This document shows, in pieces, positions 5,836 to 15,078 of a stretch of 64,000 nt of DNA. Source of the DNA: Actinomycetota bacterium (GTDB taxonomy: Bacteria; Actinomycetota; Acidimicrobiia; Acidimicrobiales; Ilumatobacteraceae). The stretch lies in contig CAUJET010000134.1 of assembly GCA_963169665.1 (NCBI GenBank), positions 7,804 through 71,803 of the forward strand. Direction: 5' to 3'. Positions within the stretch are counted from its first letter, which is position 1; each line of letters starts with the position of its first letter. The notes under the pieces were generated by a model. That model saw only the letters and a list, made by a program, of their open reading frames with translations. It was not told the origin of the DNA and did no database searches. The position numbers were made by a program, and so were the translations under genes.

Positions 5836-5909
<74 letters not shown>

Positions 5910-5996: not shown

Positions 5997-6071
5997 GCCC
6001 CTCTAGCTCAATGGCAGAGCAACGGACTCTTAATCCGCAGGTTCTCGGTTCGAGTCCGAGGGGGGGCACCA
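5997..6071 (+). tRNA. tRNA-Lys (anticodon CTT); integration target of the downstream element
   Basis: GCCCCTC acceptor, AGCTCAATGGCAGAGC D arm, anticodon loop CTCTTAA, T arm CTCGGTTCGAGTCCGAG, encoded CCA. The 3' 47 nt are duplicated at 14364-14412. Confidence 0.92.
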
Positions 6072-6073
6072 CG
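6025..6073 (+). repeat. attL core (3' half of tRNA-Lys)
   Basis: gactcttaatccgcaggttctcggttcgagtccgagggggggcaccacg, identical to 14364-14412. Confidence 0.9.
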
Positions 6074-6122
6074 CAGTACCTGGTCAGAGCCACTTTCTGA
6101 GACCAGAGTTCCTCCCCCGCTA

Positions 6123-6150
6123 CAGTCCGTGCCGCGAATCTGCCGCGAAA
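6123..6150 (+). promoter_or_regulatory. Candidate arm-type recombinase sites (2 x TGCCGCGAA) inside the left end
   Basis: cagtccgTGCCGCGAAtcTGCCGCGAAa, 13 nt upstream of the int start. A near-identical copy sits at 14232-14260 inside the right end. Confidence 0.45.
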
Positions 6151-6163
6151 GGGTGGGTCGAAC

Positions 6164-7306
6164 ATGGGGACGATGCGTGAGCGGGCGCAGGGCACGTGGG
6201 AGTTGAGCGTGGCCGCGGGACGAGATCCGGACACCGGGGCATACCGCCGCGTGATCCGAACCGTGAAGGGCGTGACGAAGCGCGAGGCCAAGGCAGCGCT
6301 CGCGGAGCTCGAAGTGGCGGTCGCCGCCGGCCGTGTGGGCGCCGACGATCCGACGCTCGCCGAGTTGCTCGAGCGGTGGATGGAACACCTCGCCGGTCTG
6401 GGCCGGTCGGACTCGACGCTGTACAACTACCGCAAGTACATCGACCGGGAGATCGTGCCGGCGCTCGGCTCGAACCGGCTGTCGAAGCTCTCCCCGCTCG
6501 ACATCGACCGCTTCTACACAAAGCTCCGCAAGCGGGGCCTGTCGTCATCGACGATCAGGCAGATGCACGCCATCCTGCGGGCCTCGCTGAACCAAGCCGA
6601 GCGTTGGGGGTTGGTGCACCGCAACGTCGCCAAGCTCGCCTCGGCGCCGTCACAGGAGCAGCGTGAGCAGCTTCCGCCGGAACCGGCGATGGTGCGAGCC
6701 CTGCTGGTCGCCGCCCGCGAGTTCGATCCGTTGTTCGGTCTCTACGTGCGGATCGCCGTGGCGATCGGTGCGCGTCGGGCCGAGGTATGCGGACTCCGAT
6801 GGAGCGACATCGACCTCGAGGCCGGCTCGTTGTCCGTTCAGCGGAGCTACCTGGCCATCCCGGGGGCGAAGGGCGACCGGCCGACCAAGACGCGATCGGC
6901 TCGCACCGTGTCGCTCGATCCGGTCACGATCGCCGCGCTCGAGGCCGGCTGGTCGACTGCCGTCCGGATCGCCGAGCTCGTCGGGATGACCGAAGCAGAA
7001 CGCCGCCAGCTCTATGTGTTCAGCACCGACCCGCTCGGGCGGAACGCGTGGCGGCCCGATGTCGCCAGCGCCAAGTGGGAGGTCGCCCGCTCCCGGGTGC
7101 CCGGCGGCGAGAGCGTTCGACTGCACGACCTCCGCCACTTCCAAGCGACGCAGCTCCTCGATGCGGGGGTGCCGGTGCCCACGGTTGCCGCTCGACTGGG
7201 CCACGCCGACGGCACGACGACGATGAAGATCTACGCCCACCGAACGCGTCGGGCCGACGAGCACGCAGCTCGCGTCGTGGCCGATTTCCTCGCCGAACCC
7301 GACTGA
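6164..7306 (+). CDS. int: Tyrosine-type site-specific integrase
   Basis: 380 aa. N-terminal SAM-like/arm-binding region; catalytic box ARRAEVCGLRWSDIDL ... HDLRHFQATQLLDAGVPVPTVAARLGHADGTTTMKIYAH (R..HxxR..Y). Confidence 0.93.
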   Translation: MGTMRERAQGTWELSVAAGRDPDTGAYRRVIRTVKGVTKREAKAALAELEVAVAAGRVGADDPTLAELLERWMEHLAGLGRSDSTLYNYRKYIDREIVPALGSNRLSKLSPLDIDRFYTKLRKRGLSSSTIRQMHAILRASLNQAERWGLVHRNVAKLASAPSQEQREQLPPEPAMVRALLVAAREFDPLFGLYVRIAVAIGARRAEVCGLRWSDIDLEAGSLSVQRSYLAIPGAKGDRPTKTRSARTVSLDPVTIAALEAGWSTAVRIAELVGMTEAERRQLYVFSTDPLGRNAWRPDVASAKWEVARSRVPGGESVRLHDLRHFQATQLLDAGVPVPTVAARLGHADGTTTMKIYAHRTRRADEHAARVVADFLAEPD

Positions 7307-7443
7307 CCGCGGTCGAGGCCGAGGAGGCCGGAATGTGGCGTACCGCGGCGGCACGCGCACGACCCGCGGCATTTCCGTGACGGTTGCGTTTCGATCGGCT
7401 CGAGTTTTCAACGCGGGCCGGTCTCGTTGTCCAGTTGTTCTAG

Positions 7444-7842
7444 GTGAAGGTATTTCTGAGCACTGCGTCGGTGACCGCCGACGCTCCGACGCTGCCCGAC
7501 TTCCTGAGCGTGAGCGAGGCGGCCCGGGTGCTGCGGGTGAGCCGCAACTCGGCGTACAAGTTGGCGAATCTGTTCATCGATTCCGACGGCGCCGAGGGCA
7601 TCCCCGCCGTTCGGTTCGGCCGGTCGATCCGGATCCCGCGAGTCGCGATCGAGGCGATCCTCGGTGGCCGCGTGTCGCTTCCCGAGTTCGACGAACGCAA
7701 AGCCTCGCTGGAGCACGCGACGCCAGTCAGGCGTTCCCGACGCAGGCGCACGACCCGCCCTCGATCAGGCGGGAACCCGTCACCCGCGGCTGATACGTCA
7801 CAGACCGTGTTCACGCAGCAGTCGCTGCCGTTCGAGGACTGA
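7444..7842 (+). CDS. xis: Excisionase-like helix-turn-helix DNA-binding protein (MerR/Xis HTH_17 type)
   Basis: GTG start. FLSVSEAARVLRVSRNSAYKLANL...IPAVRFGRSIRIPRVAIEAIL is the typical excisionase-family HTH. It has a basic, Arg-rich tail and lies between int and the relaxase gene. Confidence 0.7.
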   Translation: MKVFLSTASVTADAPTLPDFLSVSEAARVLRVSRNSAYKLANLFIDSDGAEGIPAVRFGRSIRIPRVAIEAILGGRVSLPEFDERKASLEHATPVRRSRRRRTTRPRSGGNPSPAADTSQTVFTQQSLPFED

Positions 7843-7924
7843 TCGCGTTGAACCCCATCCCGACTCATCCTCCCTGTTGCTCACTTCTGGACAGACAGGT
7901 GCCCGTTTCGGGCGGTGATGTGTC

Positions 7925-10900
7925 GTGATGCGTGTGACCACGTTGTATGCGTCGTCGGCCGCCTCGTCGGCTGCGTACTACACGAAGTACCTCACCGCCG
8001 CCCCGGGAGAGGCTCCTGGAGTGTGGATGGGCGCCCAGGCCGACGGGCTCGGCCTCGTCGGGGCGGTGAAAGGCGAGCAGTTGCAGGCGCTCCTCGCCGG
8101 CCTCGACCCCGTATCGGGACGGAGCCTCGGCCGGGCGCTGACGGATCGGACGACGAGCGATGGTCGGGTGGTGAAGGCGGTGGCGGGGTTCGACGCGACG
8201 GTGTCGGCTCCGAAGTCGTTGTCGGTGCTGTGGGCACTCACGGGAGACGACCGTCTGCTGGAGTGCCACGACGTCGCGGTCCGGGCGGTGGTGGATGCGT
8301 TCGAGCGGTGGGCCGCGACCACTCGGCTTCGCTCGGGCGGTGGTCGTCTGCATCTGGACACTCACGGTCTGTCGGTGGCGGGGTTCCGGCAGACGACGTC
8401 GCGGTTGGATGACCCGCAGATCCACACGCATCTCGTGGTGTCGGCGAAGGTGCAGACGGAGAATGGGCGGTGGATGGCGTTGGACGCGCGTGTGTTGAAG
8501 CAGCACCAACGAACCTTCGGTGGCCTGTATCAGTCGGTGCTCCGCTCGGAGGTCACGGCGAAGTTTGGGGTCGGGTGGGAGGCGATCGTGAACGGCCAGG
8601 CCGAGATCGCCGGTCTCGACCCGGAACTGCTCGCCGCGTTCTCCAAGCGTGCCGCCCAGGTGGATGCCGAAACGGATGCAAGGGTGGAGGAGTTCGAAGC
8701 ACGGGAGGGGCGGGCGCCGTCGCGGTTCGAGCGGGCGGCGATCGAGCGTGAGGCTTCTGCGGACACGCGAGTGAAGAAGACCGGCACCGCTGCCGCAGAG
8801 TTGCGGGCCGCGTGGCGCAAGGAAGCCACCGATCTCGGCCACACCCCGCGCTCGGTGATCGACGCCGTGAACACCGCCGGACGCGCACAAGCAGAGCCGG
8901 CCAAGACCACGGTCGCCGAGATCCTCACAGCGCTGTCGGATCGCAAGAGCGTGTGGCACGACCTCGACGTGCTGCGCGAGATCACCGACCGGTTCCAACC
9001 GCGACGAGGGATCTCGGGCGAGCGATGGTCGGGTGTGTTGGATCGTGCCCTCGACACGGTGCTCGAGCAGTGCATCGGCCTCGACCCCGACCAACCCGAC
9101 AGCGAAGCCGGTCGCGGGTCGGATGGGCGGTCGGTGTGGATCGAACCGGTCGCGCCACGGTGGTCGTCGCAGCAGGTGATCGATCAGGAACTCGACCTGC
9201 TCGCCTGGACGTTGAGCGCCCAAGGTCTCGAGCCGTCACCGTCGCAGTCGATCGAACGCGGCCACCTCGACGTGCTCCAGGCCGCAGCCGCAGCGGAGGT
9301 GGCGGGTGCGGATCGGTTGGTCGTGATCATCGGCCCCGCCGGCGCCGGCAAGACCAGCATGCTCACCGCAGCGATCGACGACCTCCGGCAACACGACCGA
9401 TCTGTCTTCGGCGTCGCTCCGACCGCCAAGGCGGCCCGTGTCCTCGAAGACGAGACAGGGATGCGTGCGGACACGCTCGCGAAGTTGTTGCACGAGTACG
9501 CCCGTGAGGGCGGTCCGCGACCCGAGTGGCGGTTGCGGCGCGGGACAACGGTGATCGTCGACGAGGCCGGCATGGTCTCGACACCGGATCTGTGGCGGCT
9601 CACGGACCTCGCTCAGCGCTTGGATCTGCGGGTGGTGTTGGTCGGTGACCCACACCAACTTCAGGCCGTCGCTCGCGGCGGGATGTTCCCCGAACTGGCC
9701 GCGACGGCGACGCGGAGGGTCGAGCTGGAACACGTCCATCGGTTCACCGAACCGTGGGAAGCCGCAGCGTCACTCCGGCTGCGCCGGGGTGACCCGTCCG
9801 TGCTGTCGGAGTACCTGTGGCACGGACGAGTCGAACACGGGAACATTGACGACCACCTCCGAACGATCGGGCGGCAGTGGGCCGAGGCGCAGTCGGCGGG
9901 GCGGTCGTTGGCGATCACGACCACCACCAACGAACACGCCACCCTCATCAACCACCACATCCAGAACACCCGGCTCAAGACCGGCGCGGTCACGGGCGGG
10001 CCGGTCGCTGCGGCCGACGGCGACATCTACATCGGCGATGTGGTGATGACCCGCCGCAACGACCGCACCCTCACCACCACCGCAGGTGACAGCGTCCGCA
10101 ACCGCGACCGCTGGACCATCACCGCCACCCACGACGACGGATCGATCACCGCCCACTCACACACCAGCGAGGCGACGGTGACGCTGCCGGCCGAGTATGT
10201 GCGCGAGTTCGTTCAGCTCGCCTACGCGACCACCGAGCACGGCAACCAAGGCATCACCACCGACCAATCGATCACCCTCGTCACCGGCACCACCACAGGA
10301 CGAGGTCTCTACGTTGGCGCGACCCGCGGACGCGACGACAACCAACTCTTCGTCGTCACCGACCAGCACTCCGAGCGGGAAGCCATGGACCTGCTCGGAC
10401 GGGTCCTCGCCACCGACCGGGCCGACACCCCAGCGGTCACCCATCGGCGACACCTCGCCGAACGCCAACTCGCACCGGCACCCGGGCCGCGTCGTCGAGC
10501 GGTCGAGCCCGCCTGGCTGAACGAGTGGCAGAACGATGTGCGCGACCGTGTCCCGATGATCGGCGGGCTCCTCGCCTCGATGACCGAGGAACGCCCCGCC
10601 CTCGAGCAGTCCGTCGCCCAAGCACGACAGAGCTACGACCGGGCCCGGGCACTCCCCGCACCCGACCAGCACGACCTGTCCCGAGCCCGTCGTGAGGCGA
10701 ACATCGACGACGCCGCCGCCCGCACCGCCCGCTACCGGGCGGGCAACGCCACCTGGCGAACACGCCGCCCGCTCGAGCGTGCCGCGACCGCAGCGACCGA
10801 ACGGGCAACCCTGAGCGCCGGTCGCGTCGACGAACTCGAAGCGATCTACCGGCCCGTGGCCGAACAGCGGGAGGCAACGCGTCGCGAACTGGCCGGCGCT

Positions 10901-11185
10901 ACCCAGCGGCTCGACCAGCACGACCGCCGAGCGGCCGATCTCCGCGACTACCGCGTCGACGACATCGCGCTCGACCAGGCGATCAGCACCTGGCGCACCT
11001 GGGCCGCCGGCCACACCGTCACCGGACTCGACCTCGACCACGCCGTCGGACAGTTCGCTCGATACGTCGACACCGTCCCCGGAGCCCGCGCACTCGTCAA
11101 CGCGCTCGCCTCCGAACACGTAGCGCTGAACCCGCCCGCACAGCTCGTGGACCGAGCCGATGTTGACTTCGGTATCGAACTCTGA
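7925..11185 (+). CDS. MobF-family (TrwC/TraA-like) relaxase fused to a helicase domain
   Basis: 1086 aa. N-terminus YYTKYL...GxWxG...AGFDATVSAPKSLSVLWAL...HTHLVVSAKV (relaxase His motif). Central Walker A IIGPAGAGKTSM and VIVDEAGMVS (AAA_30/RecD-like). Long C-terminal Arg/Ala-rich helical tail. ATG at 7928 is an alternative start. Confidence 0.9.
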   Translation: MMRVTTLYASSAASSAAYYTKYLTAAPGEAPGVWMGAQADGLGLVGAVKGEQLQALLAGLDPVSGRSLGRALTDRTTSDGRVVKAVAGFDATVSAPKSLSVLWALTGDDRLLECHDVAVRAVVDAFERWAATTRLRSGGGRLHLDTHGLSVAGFRQTTSRLDDPQIHTHLVVSAKVQTENGRWMALDARVLKQHQRTFGGLYQSVLRSEVTAKFGVGWEAIVNGQAEIAGLDPELLAAFSKRAAQVDAETDARVEEFEAREGRAPSRFERAAIEREASADTRVKKTGTAAAELRAAWRKEATDLGHTPRSVIDAVNTAGRAQAEPAKTTVAEILTALSDRKSVWHDLDVLREITDRFQPRRGISGERWSGVLDRALDTVLEQCIGLDPDQPDSEAGRGSDGRSVWIEPVAPRWSSQQVIDQELDLLAWTLSAQGLEPSPSQSIERGHLDVLQAAAAAEVAGADRLVVIIGPAGAGKTSMLTAAIDDLRQHDRSVFGVAPTAKAARVLEDETGMRADTLAKLLHEYAREGGPRPEWRLRRGTTVIVDEAGMVSTPDLWRLTDLAQRLDLRVVLVGDPHQLQAVARGGMFPELAATATRRVELEHVHRFTEPWEAAASLRLRRGDPSVLSEYLWHGRVEHGNIDDHLRTIGRQWAEAQSAGRSLAITTTTNEHATLINHHIQNTRLKTGAVTGGPVAAADGDIYIGDVVMTRRNDRTLTTTAGDSVRNRDRWTITATHDDGSITAHSHTSEATVTLPAEYVREFVQLAYATTEHGNQGITTDQSITLVTGTTTGRGLYVGATRGRDDNQLFVVTDQHSEREAMDLLGRVLATDRADTPAVTHRRHLAERQLAPAPGPRRRAVEPAWLNEWQNDVRDRVPMIGGLLASMTEERPALEQSVAQARQSYDRARALPAPDQHDLSRARREANIDDAAARTARYRAGNATWRTRRPLERAATAATERATLSAGRVDELEAIYRPVAEQREATRRELAGATQRLDQHDRRAADLRDYRVDDIALDQAISTWRTWAAGHTVTGLDLDHAVGQFARYVDTVPGARALVNALASEHVALNPPAQLVDRADVDFGIEL

Positions 11186-11285
11186 GCGGAGGGGCTTAGC
11201 GTCCGTTGGGCGGAAGCCTCATGCTCATTGCCGGTTGCAATGCATCACTTAGCAGCCGCTGAACGATTTGGAGTTGTTCTTCCGC

Positions 11286-12008
11286 TCACAGGTCAACATC
11301 TAAGGGTGAATCCATAGTGACCCATTCGTTAGCGGTTTGCATTTGGGACGATAGAGCTGAAAGAAACAAGCGCGATCCAGCCACGTATATCGACCAGAAG
11401 TCGACGTCGGTCGCGACGAACCACGCTCGATCATCGGGCCAGAACAAGTCGGGGTTTCGCCACTCATTGAATCCCGGAAAGACAAGCCTTGTTGCTGACT
11501 TCACAGGTCCACCTAGGAGATAGTACGCACGGTTCGGCCGGTGGAACTGCTGAAGATCTTCTAGTTCGACTCTGATAAGAGCGTTTCGTTGGCCGTCCTG
11601 CATTGTGGCCATTCGACGCTCGGCAGCTAGGAGCAAAGACGACTCCTCGTCGAGTTGGGTGGAGGAGGCAATGCGCGTTGATCCCTTGTCGAAGCCATGC
11701 CCTTCCCAAATGGCAAACCATGCGCGTTCAGGAGTAGTTGTATACCGTTCGCCAATGGATGCAATCGTCTGAAATTGGCTTCTATAGTCAGCCCACCAAC
11801 CGGTCGGTTTTGGAGCGGCCGGCAACACTCTAAGTATCCCCTCAAAGCGATCCGGAACAAGGGATCCGACCGAACCGTTTGCGCCCTGGCACTCCTCATC
11901 GATCCAGAGCGCTGGCGCATCCTCCTTTGCGGCAAAGACAAATCGCCCGAAAGGCATCTCTCCAGGGCTCGCCTCGCGATCATGTCCGTGAATTGGATCT
12001 CGAGTCAT
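11286..12008 (-). CDS. Hypothetical cytoplasmic protein (cargo gene 2; possible immunity-type protein)
   Basis: 240 aa in a ~50% GC segment with no signal peptide or TM helix. Its start is 12 nt after the stop of the upstream secreted-protein gene. The C-terminal motif NPDLFWPDDRAWFVATDVDFWSIYVAGS recalls DUF2716/immunity-like families (unverified). Confidence 0.65.
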   Translation of the reverse strand: MTRDPIHGHDREASPGEMPFGRFVFAAKEDAPALWIDEECQGANGSVGSLVPDRFEGILRVLPAAPKPTGWWADYRSQFQTIASIGERYTTTPERAWFAIWEGHGFDKGSTRIASSTQLDEESSLLLAAERRMATMQDGQRNALIRVELEDLQQFHRPNRAYYLLGGPVKSATRLVFPGFNEWRNPDLFWPDDRAWFVATDVDFWSIYVAGSRLFLSALSSQMQTANEWVTMDSPLDVDL

Positions 12009-12020
12009 AGCGTCCGCCTA

Positions 12021-12713
12021 TCAGGTCGGATAGCACCACAGTTGTTTGTCAGCGCCTTGGGAGTAGCCGGAGGGATCGGACCAGTTGACAAGGTCGACGT
12101 CAACTTGCTCGCGATACACGACAACCGAGTTCGTGTTGGCGCACGTACGGCGGGCGTTCGCCCAGTTGGTAGAGCCTCCGCCTGCATACACAGTCCTCTG
12201 ACCGCTTGCCAGCGTCACCCATCCGCATCCGGTGAAACTACCGCAACCGTAAGCCTGCAGGTAGATGGTCACGATCGCCTTTGAAGGGCAGGTATTGCCG
12301 CTTACGCTCTCCTTGGTCCACCACCCGTGAACGGAGGCATCAGTCGTGCCGGTGGAAGTTGTGGTATGGATGTTGTCTGAATTCTGTCGATATTTGCAGG
12401 TTCCTGCGGTGATCACACTTGAAACAACGTACGATGGCTTTGCACGAAATCCAGCGGACTGTCCTACTTTTTCGGTCTGCTCGGGAGGTGTCTCGAGAGG
12501 CCGCGATCTATCCTCAGGGCCTGCCTTCGCAAGGAACACGAAGTCGGACGGAATGTCGTCAATCGTGCGTGGAAACTCTGCTAGCCGTTCCGGGGACGAA
12601 CTGGTGTTGTCGGGAGCGGCGAAGTCGACTGCCCCTACCGAGGTTGTCATTGGACTTATCGCGGTCACCGCACATCCCACTGCAATGGCGCAATAGATGA
12701 CAGCCGTCTTCAT
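12021..12713 (-). CDS. Secreted six-cysteine protein of unknown function (cargo gene 1)
   Basis: Track ORF trimmed to the ATG at 12711-12713. Signal peptide MKTAVIYCAIAVGCAVTAISPMTTSVGA, then an acidic/Pro-rich spacer, then a C-terminal ~130-aa domain with 6 Cys (TCKY, TCPS, GCGS, GCGW, TCAN, WCYP). ~50% GC. Confidence 0.7.
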   Translation of the reverse strand: MKTAVIYCAIAVGCAVTAISPMTTSVGAVDFAAPDNTSSSPERLAEFPRTIDDIPSDFVFLAKAGPEDRSRPLETPPEQTEKVGQSAGFRAKPSYVVSSVITAGTCKYRQNSDNIHTTTSTGTTDASVHGWWTKESVSGNTCPSKAIVTIYLQAYGCGSFTGCGWVTLASGQRTVYAGGGSTNWANARRTCANTNSVVVYREQVDVDLVNWSDPSGYSQGADKQLWCYPT

Positions 12714-12883
12714 CGCTTCTCCTGTCGGGTGGGTATTCGTGGCGTAACGACCATCGAATCTCAGTTCTCTGAGAGAGTAGCATCCTTCGAGAACGTGGGT
12801 CAACAACAAGAACGCAGGCAGATGAAGTCGTTGAACTGACTCCATTCGATGGACTCTGCCTCACGCAACGGGGGTTTTGTCGA

Positions 12884-12920
12884 CGACGCTCGAAAACTGG
12901 TCAGTAGCGACGCTCGAAAA
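12884..12920. repeat. 13-bp direct repeat pair CGACGCTCGAAAA in the cargo/TA intergenic gap
   Basis: Copies at 12884-12896 and 12908-12920, with starts 24 bp apart. Confidence 0.6.
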
Positions 12921-13421
12921 GTGAACACTCGAAGATTGGACTTCCGCAAGCAGCCCTCTTGAACACGATCTTGAGGCGCGATCTACGGATCGTCAATGAA
13001 CACCTCCGGAAGGGCCTGGCACCACTCACACGTCACCAACGGCCGACCGTAAGCCGCTAACGACTCTGCAAAACGGACACACGCGTCGTACTCGGACTCG
13101 TCAACTTCCGCCACCAACGAATCTGCTGCGTGCTTTACGCCAGCCAATCCGACTGAATCCCCAAGAACCCACGATCCATCGCCGAGACACGAAGAACCAG
13201 CTTCTCAAGCGTGGCACACCATGCCGCTGATCGTGCGCCTGTCCGGGACCGTGCCCCCAGCGACCCGCTGCGGACTGTGGCGAACCTGCGGGCCGCCGAT
13301 GCGGAATGGCGACTTCAGCGAGGATCAACGGATCGAACCTCGAGGTGGACTACACCCGGGACACCCACGAAGCGGTTGCAACCTGCTGGACAATTTCGGT
13401 TGTTGCGGCAACTATGTGTAC

Positions 13422-13715
13422 ATGAACGCGTACATATCGGTCCCAGAGACCGTCAGCGACACTCGCAAGCACCTCACCGGTCACGTAGCGCGGTTCCGGT
13501 CGGAAGGCATCGGGGCCTCCCCCGTGGTCTTCGGAGATCGCCGCCACCCCGACGCAGTGCTCATGCCCTACGAGACGTTCCGCCTCCTGCTCGACATCGC
13601 CGAGGACCTGGTGATCGCAGAGCGGATCCACGAGCGAGACGCCGCCGACAGCGGAGAGCGCACCTCGTTGCGAGATGTCGCCGACGAGTTCGGCATCGAC
13701 CTCGACACGCTGTGA
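13422..13715 (+). CDS. Type II antitoxin, Phd/YefM family
   Basis: Track ORF trimmed to the ATG at 13422: MNAYISVPETVSDTRKHLTGHVARFRSEG...PVVFGDRRHPDAVLMPYETFRLLLDIAEDL. This is the Phd/YefM fold pattern. Confidence 0.85.
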   Translation: MNAYISVPETVSDTRKHLTGHVARFRSEGIGASPVVFGDRRHPDAVLMPYETFRLLLDIAEDLVIAERIHERDAADSGERTSLRDVADEFGIDLDTL

Positions 13716-14197
13716 CGAGCACGCCTGGCCAACGGACCGAGCCAGGTTCGTCGCCGTTCACTCGCGTCCAGTTCACCAACGCGGCCATCGACGACCTCCA
13801 CGGCATCCGAGAGCGCGCGGCCCCGGTGCTGCGAAGCGTGTTCACCGCGTTGAAGGCACTCGACCAGGGCACGCTCCGACCGACACCACTGAAGCACTAC
13901 GCCAAGACCGGTGACCTCCGCGACTGCGGCAAGGTGGTCGTCGAGACAGCCGGCCATCCCGAGTACCGCATCGTGGTCCGCGAGGCCGGCGGCACCATCG
14001 AGATCATCGAAGTCGTCACCGTCGAAGAACGAGCCGACGACCTCGCCTACCTCCTCGCCGGGGTGCGCCTCGGTCGGATCACCGACCCGATCCGACGATC
14101 CGACACCGACCGAAAGATCGCACGGATCCGCAAACTCAGAAGCGGATCGAGCGCGCCGCCGACCACCCCGACGAAGGGGTCCGAGACGTCTCCGTGA
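13712..14197 (+). CDS. Type II toxin, RelE/ParE superfamily-like, with a ~60-aa C-terminal extension
   Basis: GTG at 13712 overlaps the antitoxin TGA (GTGA). The core LKHYAKTGDLRDCGKVVVETAGHPEYRIVVREAGGTIEIIEVVTVEERADDLAY fits the RelE/ParE beta-sheet pattern. The tail is Ser/Pro/Thr/Arg-rich. Confidence 0.7.
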   Translation: MTSTPGQRTEPGSSPFTRVQFTNAAIDDLHGIRERAAPVLRSVFTALKALDQGTLRPTPLKHYAKTGDLRDCGKVVVETAGHPEYRIVVREAGGTIEIIEVVTVEERADDLAYLLAGVRLGRITDPIRRSDTDRKIARIRKLRSGSSAPPTTPTKGSETSP

Positions 14198-14231
14198 CGC
14201 ACTGCAGATCACGGAGTCCGCAGGCCCTGCG

Positions 14232-14260
14232 CAGTCCTTGCCGCGAATTTTGCCGCGAAA
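14232..14260 (+). promoter_or_regulatory. Candidate arm-type recombinase sites (2 x TGCCGCGAA) inside the right end
   Basis: cagtcctTGCCGCGAAtttTGCCGCGAAa, in the same orientation as the 6123-6150 copy and ~105 bp inside attR. Confidence 0.45.
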
Positions 14261-14363
14261 CGTGCTGGGACAGGATGGGACGGACGGTACAGTCTGGATT
14301 GCCGCACCCGCTCTGAGCAGGTGCGACGTGACACAACAACACTCGTTGGCACGGCGCTGGGGC

Positions 14364-14412
14364 GACTCTTAATCCGCAGGTTCTCGGTTCGAGTCCGAGG
14401 GGGGGCACCACG
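14364..14412 (+). repeat. attR core (duplicate of the tRNA-Lys 3' half)
   Basis: 49/49 identity to 6025-6073. The upstream sequence does not continue the tRNA. Confidence 0.9.
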
Positions 14413-14450
14413 ACGCCGCGGTCCACGGACCACGGCGTTTCGTCGTTTTC
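14413..14450 (+). terminator. Intrinsic terminator candidate, probably the original tRNA-Lys terminator displaced by the insertion
   Basis: ACGCCG-c-GGTC-cacg-GACC-a-CGGCGT stem-loop followed by TTTCGTCGTTTTC, starting immediately after the attR copy of the tRNA 3' end. Confidence 0.5.
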
Positions 14451-14478
14451 GGCCGGTTCGAGCGCCCGGCCGCCGGGG

Positions 14479-15078
14479 TCAGGACCGAGCGGCCGACAGC
14501 GACGATCGGCGGCGCGGCGCAGCTGCCACCTCGTGGTGCACATGGACCCGGTGACCGTCCCGATCGAACAGCATGATCACCTCGGCCGGCCCGTCGACGG
14601 CCGTGATCGCGTGCGGTGTCATCGTGGCGAACTCGGCCACCTCGCCCGATTCGACCAGGACCTCGCGGTCGCCGAGCAGCAGGCGCACACGCCCCTCGAT
14701 CACGAAGAACCAGTCGTGCCCCGGGTGCACCCGCTGTTCGGGCACCCGCCCGCTCGGCTCGAACCGCATCTTCACGGCGACCGTGGTGCTCGTCGGCCGG
14801 CTGAGCACCCAGGTCGTGGTGTCGCCGTCGCTGGCCGCCACGGGGCGGATGACGACGTCGTCGTCGTGACGGACCTCGAGCAGCGCGTCGAGGTCCACGT
14901 GGAGCGCCCGAGCGAGCGGGACGAGCACGTCGAGGCTGATCGTGCGATGCCCGGTCTCGATCCGGCTGATGGTGGAGGCGCTGAGGTTGGTGCGGCTCGC
15001 CACCTCGTCCAGCGACAGGCCGAGCGTGGTGCGCAGGCTGCGCAACCGAGTGCGTACCACCCGCTCGATCTCCTGCAT
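14479..15078 (-). CDS. XRE-family transcriptional regulator with C-terminal cupin domain
   Basis: Only the last 199 codons of the 1676-aa track ORF are credible (ATG at 15076-15078). HTH LSLDEVASRTNLSASTISRIETGHRTISLDVLVPLARAL, then cupin HPGHDWFFVIEGRVRLLLGD...FATMTPHA. Confidence 0.9.
   Translation of the reverse strand: MQEIERVVRTRLRSLRTTLGLSLDEVASRTNLSASTISRIETGHRTISLDVLVPLARALHVDLDALLEVRHDDDVVIRPVAASDGDTTTWVLSRPTSTTVAVKMRFEPSGRVPEQRVHPGHDWFFVIEGRVRLLLGDREVLVESGEVAEFATMTPHAITAVDGPAEVIMLFDRDGHRVHVHHEVAAAPRRRSSLSAARS

Follow-up and report, generated by a model that had tools for sequence, protein, structure and literature searches.

Why would a protein that leaves the cell be encoded directly ahead of a small acidic protein that stays inside it? 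The question is raised by two neighbouring genes, here called gene 1 and gene 2, in a 64,000-nucleotide stretch of DNA (the window) of an Actinomycetota bacterium of the family Ilumatobacteraceae (Acidimicrobiia; GenBank assembly GCA_963169665.1, contig CAUJET010000134.1, positions 7,804 to 71,803 of the forward strand). A first interpretation made from the letters, to which we refer as the sequence-only reading, had proposed a secreted six-cysteine effector with a dedicated immunity-like partner on a mobilizable element. The computational analysis reported here leads to a related, tentative answer, to which we assign a probability of roughly 0.45: the pair would be a toxin/immunity-like module that belongs to the cargo of an integrative mobilizable element, with a partner gene that was co-opted in the clade of the window. 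What is said below of the function of the pair is drawn entirely from genomic comparison. Both genes were taken from the list of open reading frames (ORFs).

12021..12713, minus strand, gene 1, secreted protein of 230 aa (stop codon within the coordinates)
11286..12008, minus strand, gene 2, acidic cytoplasmic protein of 240 aa

Conserved pairing of gene 1 with a small acidic partner

Presence or absence of a family at a locus was decided by hidden Markov model searches of six-frame translations; gene calls based on third-position GC content (GC3) missed low-GC genes. In the clade of the window, a gene of the gene 2 family lies directly downstream of gene 1 in all six loci (the window, L113, L123, L013, L124 and L044), with a gap of 0-70 nt. 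The four closest gene 1 homologs are 57-62% identical to the protein of the window, and that of L044 is more distant. Elsewhere, the downstream position is taken by a different protein, partner B, which directly follows the gene 1 homolog on the same strand in 27 of the 35 metagenome loci. Loci without partner B have less than 450 bp of downstream sequence, with the exception of L088, where gene 1 itself is frameshifted.

Partner B is an acidic cytoplasmic family of ~155-165 aa with the motif HPWSWLAELARxRGLxVTAxxLxxLPYEVxLTD (alignment A3). Its homologs number at least 842, every one of them labelled "hypothetical", and come from Micromonospora, Frankiaceae, Nitrolancea and further taxa. No Pfam family is matched above cut-off, one of 12 members giving a weak match to DUF6461 (E 0.005). 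Both partner families are small, lack signal peptides and are strongly acidic, with similar median charges (-12 and -11). A remote relationship of gene 2 to partner B was considered and rejected (hhalign probability 0.2%). Copies of partner B were located at L077-L111 (for example L090, 6512-6985), and in all loci examined other than L118 they stand downstream of a gene 1 homolog.

The sequence-only reading had regarded the two families of the window as dedicated to each other. At the level of the families this does not hold: gene 1 is found beside a gene 2 homolog in three of the 69 genome loci with gene 2 (L013 and L044, on the same strand, and L021, where the genes are divergent), gene 2 is absent from all 35 metagenome loci that have gene 1 homologs, and the usual partner of gene 1 is partner B. 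What the neighbourhood comparison did bear out is a conserved two-gene module on mobile DNA, with adjacency kept in the six clade loci.

The relation between gene 1 and its partners is asymmetric. In the loci sampled, a partner is present beside every intact gene 1 with readable downstream DNA (22 of 22; 16 partner B and six of the gene 2 family). Partner B, on the other hand, is intact beside a gene 1 with an in-frame stop codon at L095 (5797-6381), beside a frameshifted gene 1 at L116 (6399-6823) and L117 (100-527), and beside N-terminally truncated copies at L100/L101 and L103; at L118 it is intact with no gene 1 within 620 bp upstream. The frameshift at L116 and L117 is that of Micromonospora globbae and is present in two independent sources. 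Moreover, in pairwise comparison partner B sequences are on average 49% identical and gene 1 domains 63%, with the greater divergence on the partner side in 90% of comparisons. An antidote relation is favoured because the secreted protein is never kept alone, while its partner often stands alone, evolves faster and is replaceable by an unrelated family, and because the genes are found on mobile or variable DNA. The genomic pattern, with every intact gene 1 partnered and partners outlasting decayed copies, thus fits the toxin/immunity logic suggested earlier; gene 1 shows no recognisable toxin fold.

Gene 1: start, export and fold

12630..12713, minus strand, Sec-type signal peptide (gene 1 residues 1-28, MKTAVIYCAIAVGCAVTAISPMTTSVGA; hydrophobicity maximum at residue 4)
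12432..12629, minus strand, acidic, proline-rich linker (gene 1 residues 29-94, isoelectric point 4.6), including the clade-specific conserved segment FPRTIDDIPSDFVFLAKAGPEDRS
12024..12431, minus strand, C-terminal all-beta domain of ~135 aa with six invariant cysteines and invariant Y108, D113, H116, H129 and W132 (alignment A1 and AlphaFold2 model)

Gene 1 probably starts at an internal ATG (12713) of a longer minus-strand ORF (12021..12845). In the NCBI/JGI annotation it has 274 aa and begins at ATG 12845, 44 codons upstream. ATG 12713 is the likelier start because the Shine-Dalgarno-like sequence AGGAGAA directly precedes it and because the 274-aa form would bury the signal peptide. The ORF proposed previously is therefore retained, its length of 231 aa having included the stop codon. 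As also proposed, genes 1 and 2 are on the same strand with 12 nt between them. Since nearly all gene 2 homologs start at the residue that aligns with M18 of gene 2 (ATG 11957; alignment A2), the true spacing may be 63 nt, close to the 60-70 nt of related loci.

The three parts of the protein described from the letters, a Sec signal peptide, an acidic and proline-rich spacer and a C-terminal six-cysteine domain, were all recovered. The N-terminus is strongly hydrophobic (Kyte-Doolittle maximum over 19 residues 1.96, at residue 4), and the same plan of signal peptide, variable linker and C-terminal domain of ~135 aa is seen across the family. A strongly hydrophobic h-region of the Sec type is present in 137 of the 155 full-length members and a strict twin-arginine translocation (Tat) motif in one. 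Tat export with a dedicated folding chaperone was considered as well and rejected on the basis of this single strict twin-arginine motif together with the strongly hydrophobic h-regions. Gene 1 has 43 close homologs, and a profile search retrieved 722 representative clusters at 50% identity. Residues C106, C142, C157, C163, C191 and C227 are invariant in the 43 homologs (alignment A1), the first and last of them lying close to the two ends of the domain.

AlphaFold2 models the domain as an 11-strand beta-sandwich, with a predicted local distance difference test score (pLDDT) above 90 over most of its length; linker residues 51-70 are also modelled at pLDDT >90. The conserved linker segment (FPRTIxEIPxDFVFL) is shared by P0002-P0005, and the clades with partner B have no such segment. 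The charge of the domain is near neutral, with a family median isoelectric point of 6.9 and a value of 7.8 for the copy in the window. A Foldseek comparison of gene 1 with the PDB returned only generic immunoglobulin-like (Ig-like), arrestin, MspA-rim, CrdA and DUF4426 matches, at E-values of at least 3.7e-3 and template-modelling scores of at most 0.51.

Gene 1 has no match in Pfam or NCBIfam, and no member of alignment A1 matches Pfam; among long members of the family, one Golvesin_C match (E 0.003) falls below cut-off. PADLOC (E ≤ 0.1) returned no match for gene 1, gene 2, partner B or neighbouring ORFs, and PHROGs none for gene 1, gene 2 or partner B. The earlier statement that gene 1 belongs to no recognised family therefore agrees with searches of Pfam, NCBIfam, PADLOC, PHROGs and PDB sequences, in which gene 2 likewise obtained no significant named match. 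A stretch of 23 nt within gene 1 (12153-12175) shares 83% identity with the 5' end of tRNA-His (5839-5861), most likely by chance.

Gene 2: a widespread family of Acidimicrobiia

Gene 2 is acidic (isoelectric point 4.8, charge -11) and contains no hydrophobic segment, in line with the earlier description of a protein devoid of a signal or transmembrane helix. At least 302 homologs of ~224 aa were found, nearly all in Acidimicrobiia, and they form a well-conserved family that is marked by the motifs WEGHGF and WRNPDLFWPDDRxWFVATDVDFWS and by invariant H104, D193 and D201 (alignment A2). The motif to which the sequence-only reading had drawn attention is real and constitutes the most conserved block of the family; it was placed at the very end of the protein and in fact occupies residues 185-212 of 240. 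The assignment attached to it, a protein resembling DUF2716 or SMI1, is not borne out. Gene 2 shares with SUKH/SMI1_KNR4 and DUF2716 proteins a small size, acidity, a cytoplasmic location and a C-terminal beta region rich in Trp, Asp and Gly, but none of 59 family members has a Pfam match at E ≤ 1 (hmmscan), and Foldseek found no structural match in the PDB (best E 0.33) or BFVD. A literature search for DUF6461 and DUF2716 found no papers. NCBIfam gave no match either. A profile search of PDB sequences retrieved only 5hyg_A ("uncharacterized protein"; E 0.003), which Foldseek did not recover and of which no mention was found in the literature searched. The AlphaFold2 model (pLDDT 92, predicted template-modelling score 0.87) suggests that gene 2 may represent a new fold.

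In genomes of Acidimicrobiia the gene 2 family is mostly solo, with up to four loci per metagenome-assembled genome (MAG). No neighbour is conserved among the 69 loci. The only recurring one is a tyrosine recombinase, within 4 kb at ~10 of the 69 loci, in a BLAST cluster of which several members are spurious antisense or beta-lactamase-like ORFs. The gene 2-family partners at L113 (1163-1780) and L124 (1337-1702) lack the long central helix (residues ~110-150 of the window protein) and have WDGH in place of WEGHGF. Whatever connects gene 1 with gene 2 thus does not require this helix. One homolog of 305 aa, P0102, has a precomputed Phage_integrase match (PF00589), which could reflect either a gene fusion or an erroneous gene call at the boundary of an integrase.

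Weighing a toxin/immunity-like module against other explanations

As a toxin/immunity-like module, the pair would work as follows. Gene 1 would be exported unfolded through Sec and fold outside the cell into a disulfide-stabilised beta-sandwich, with a conserved polar cluster (D113, H116, H129, W132 and the GGGS loop 178-181) as putative active or binding site. The product would be toxic and would be taken up into target cells. Gene 2 would stay in the cytoplasm and, presumably by binding gene 1, shield the carrier cell from gene 1 product that has been misdirected within the cell or has entered it from siblings. The protective role would fall in most lineages to the unrelated, ~160-aa acidic partner B; in the clade of the window, a member of a family widespread in Acidimicrobiia would have been co-opted as protective partner. 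The analysis shows the export signal, the class of fold, the conserved adjacency, the swap of partners and the asymmetric decay of the genes, whereas toxicity, protection, binding of the two proteins and uptake into target cells are inferred.

Several observations weigh against this proposal. No toxin or enzyme fold was recognised for gene 1 in Pfam, NCBIfam, PDB sequence profiles or Foldseek comparisons with the PDB, nor was any catalytic motif; a profile search of PDB sequences gave no match, and the ten longest members scanned (among the 150 best gene 1 representatives) contain no Pfam domain above cut-off. The three conserved disulfides suggest a protein built for work outside the cell, beyond the reach of a cytoplasmic partner, and with Sec export the two proteins can encounter each other in folded form within the producer only if gene 1 re-enters. 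On the partner side, gene 1 is missing from 66 of the 69 genome loci that carry a gene 2 homolog, where the neighbours are heterogeneous, and the invariant H104, D193 and D201 of gene 2 are more suggestive of an enzyme site than of a binding surface. Finally, the sample of loci is modest and most metagenome contigs are short.

A coupled pair without antagonism, the main alternative, would account for part of these observations, and we consider it possible, if doubtful. Gene 1 would then be a secreted binding or enzymatic beta-sandwich for a metal, carbohydrate or cell-wall ligand, and its partner an enzyme acting on the imported product, a regulator or a pre-export holdase. This explains the fold better than does a toxin, as the Ig-like fold is common in binding modules and CrdA, DUF4426 and the MspA rim are among the top Foldseek matches. 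Invariant Trp, Tyr and His residues, first and last cysteines near the domain ends, the near-neutral charge of the domain and the absence of toxin-trafficking domains from the longest family members scanned are all in keeping with it, as are the invariant His and Asp residues of gene 2 and the mostly ordinary genomic contexts of that family. It leaves the orphan partners and the partner swap unexplained, however. A dedicated accessory would have no reason to outlast its client widely, yet partner B is intact beside broken copies of gene 1, and a swap to an unrelated family is unusual for chaperones or pathway enzymes. Moreover, no folded-state chaperone is needed because export is of the Sec type rather than Tat, and the module is on mobile DNA with a patchy distribution.

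Incidental adjacency, in which independent cargo genes travel together in one small clade, is improbable. The low co-occurrence of the two families (three of 69 gene 2 loci and none of 35 gene 1 loci), the mostly solo occurrence of gene 2 and the divergent orientation at L021 are what it would predict. Against it, six loci have preserved the same-strand arrangement with a 0-70 nt gap while identity between their proteins has fallen to 50-62%, and elsewhere in the gene 1 family the downstream slot is always held by a protein of similar size and charge. Just as improbable is another system that benefits the element (an addiction module, exclusion or anti-phage defence, with gene 1 at the cell surface and gene 2 inside), to which the location on an integrative mobilizable element beside a toxin-antitoxin-like pair, the tyrosine recombinases near ~10 of the 69 gene 2 loci and the multiple copies of gene 2 in some genomes would lend themselves, but gene 1, gene 2 and partner B have no PADLOC or PHROGs match, most gene 1 and partner B pairs show no evident element genes (on contigs that are short), no membrane or sensor component is present, and nothing speaks positively for a defence or exclusion role.

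The toxin/immunity-like module can also be given a bolder form, which we regard as rather unlikely. In this form the gene 1 domain would be a new Sec-exported, disulfide-locked antibacterial effector with a fold unlike known toxins, widespread in soil Actinomycetota (hundreds of clusters) and countered, depending on the lineage, by two or more unrelated, undescribed families of cytoplasmic immunity proteins, gene 2 being a co-opted housekeeping-type protein of Acidimicrobiia.

Comparison with known systems

Polymorphic toxin/immunity cassettes, in the comparative-genomics sense, were reportedly described by Zhang, Aravind and colleagues in 2012. The pair resembles them in its order, a secreted protein followed by a small acidic cytoplasmic protein, in its mobile or variable setting, in the occurrence of orphan partner genes and in a partner that evolves faster than the secreted domain. 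It differs in that gene 1 is neither modular nor polymorphic, having one conserved C-terminal domain after a signal peptide and variable linker, and in that neither protein matches a Tox, Ntox or Imm family in Pfam. As in toxin-immunity pairs generally, the secreted component has an adjacent partner gene, on the same strand at 12 or 63 nt, both in the six clade loci and, with partner B, elsewhere.

ABP systems of Gram-positive bacteria, composed of the toxin AbpT, the protease AbpP and the immunity protein AbpI, combine Sec-secreted toxins with cytoplasmic immunity proteins and occur in Actinomycetota (PMC13460014). The present pair is likewise from Actinomycetota, with a Sec signal on the secreted component and a small cytoplasmic partner adjoining, and the linker before the C-terminal domain of gene 1 could be a processed pro-region. 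The pair is nevertheless not a member of the ABP systems. No S8 protease is found among the scanned ORFs of the element and none was called beside homologous pairs. The N-terminal BetaH domain of ABP systems is a beta-sheet around a central, cationic amphipathic alpha-helix (PMC13460014), whereas the gene 1 model has no helix of four or more residues before the domain and its linker is acidic (isoelectric point 4.6), a comparison that draws on the model and on the linker charge. Finally, the C-terminal domain of gene 1 is conserved, near neutral and in no known toxin fold, while the ABP toxin domain is polymorphic and strongly cationic.

A closer parallel in evolution is Tde5, in which homologous toxins are paired with unrelated immunity families, one of which, Tdi5b, was co-opted and is also widespread in settings unconnected with toxins (PMC13392607). 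Here too, unrelated families serve as partners of homologous secreted proteins in different lineages (as with Tdi5a and Tdi5b), and one partner family, gene 2, is widespread in unrelated contexts and apparently co-opted. Tde5 itself is a DNase delivered by a type VI secretion system, with proven toxicity and measured binding (PMC13392607); gene 1, on the other hand, has Sec as its sole link to secretion and no known enzyme fold. Taken together, the pair appears most like a simple cassette of secreted effector and cytoplasmic immunity protein, and its evolution seems to resemble that of Tde5/Tdi5b. The kind of system is thus known, while the three protein families and their strict partner rule are undescribed as far as the libraries searched show.

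The mobile element and its cargo

Positions 6025-14412 of the window are an 8.3-kb integrative mobilizable element at tRNA-Lys, with the following features besides genes 1 and 2.

6025..6073, plus strand, attL, a 49-bp direct repeat that is the 3' part of tRNA-Lys (5997-6071)
6164..7306, plus strand, tyrosine integrase (PF00589, E 1.4e-19)
7925..11185, plus strand, TrwC-type relaxase with helicase domain (PF08751, E 1.2e-73; PF13604, E 1.8e-54), convergent with gene 2
11190..13150, no strand assigned, low-GC cassette (51-60% GC) with gene 2, gene 1 and their upstream region
12983..13147, minus strand, small ORF of 54 aa containing CEWC, upstream of gene 1 inside the low-GC cassette, uncertain as a gene
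13422..13715, plus strand, Phd/YefM-like antitoxin candidate (PF02604, E 0.0075, below the Pfam cut-off)
13712..14197, plus strand, ParE-like toxin candidate (PF05016, E 0.0019, below the Pfam cut-off)
14364..14412, plus strand, attR, second copy of the 49-bp repeat, 100% identical to attL

The tRNA-Lys repeats, the integrase and the relaxase confirm the earlier placement of the pair on a mobilizable element; no Pfam-recognisable transfer gene is present among its scanned ORFs. The pair had also been taken for the only non-backbone cargo. This proved too narrow, as the overlapping Phd/YefM-like and ParE-like ORFs (13422-14197), with their weak Pfam matches, and two small unassigned ORFs are present as well. 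The former two are a probable stabilisation module of the element. The low-GC cassette is sharply bounded at ~11190-13150, with 68-75% GC on both flanks. Its CEWC-containing ORF, called in a 43-aa version in identical public contigs, has no family matches. A Rfam scan of 11000-14500 gave only a chance-level small RNA match (E 0.3), and a sigma-70 promoter scan found nothing, such a scan being uninformative for a high-GC actinobacterium.

Proteins at least 90% identical to the integrase of the element occur in Acidimicrobiales MAGs. Sister elements from other Acidimicrobiia assemblies (L119-L122), with an integrase at least 90% identical and the same recA-proximal site, carry a different and larger cargo that includes a PASTA/LysM protein and an ABC ATPase, and their relaxase is inverted. 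It follows that the gene pair belongs to the variable cargo and that its host is of the Acidimicrobiia type. Homologous gene 1-gene 2 pairs are flanked by integrases or transposases.

Implications

If the pair is a toxin/immunity pair, a large unannotated effector family would be added to those known, comprising the 722 gene 1 clusters at 50% identity, along with at least 842 partner B proteins. It would extend the small set of diffusible protein toxins of Gram-positive bacteria with a fold and mechanism that toxin catalogues do not predict, and it would supply a clear natural case in which one immunity protein was replaced through the co-option of another. Should gene 1 not be a toxin, three families that have no Pfam or NCBIfam model are still tied together by a strict genomic rule, one of them with a confidently predicted fold that finds no match in the PDB, and this partner rule offers a concrete experimental handle on the function of all three.

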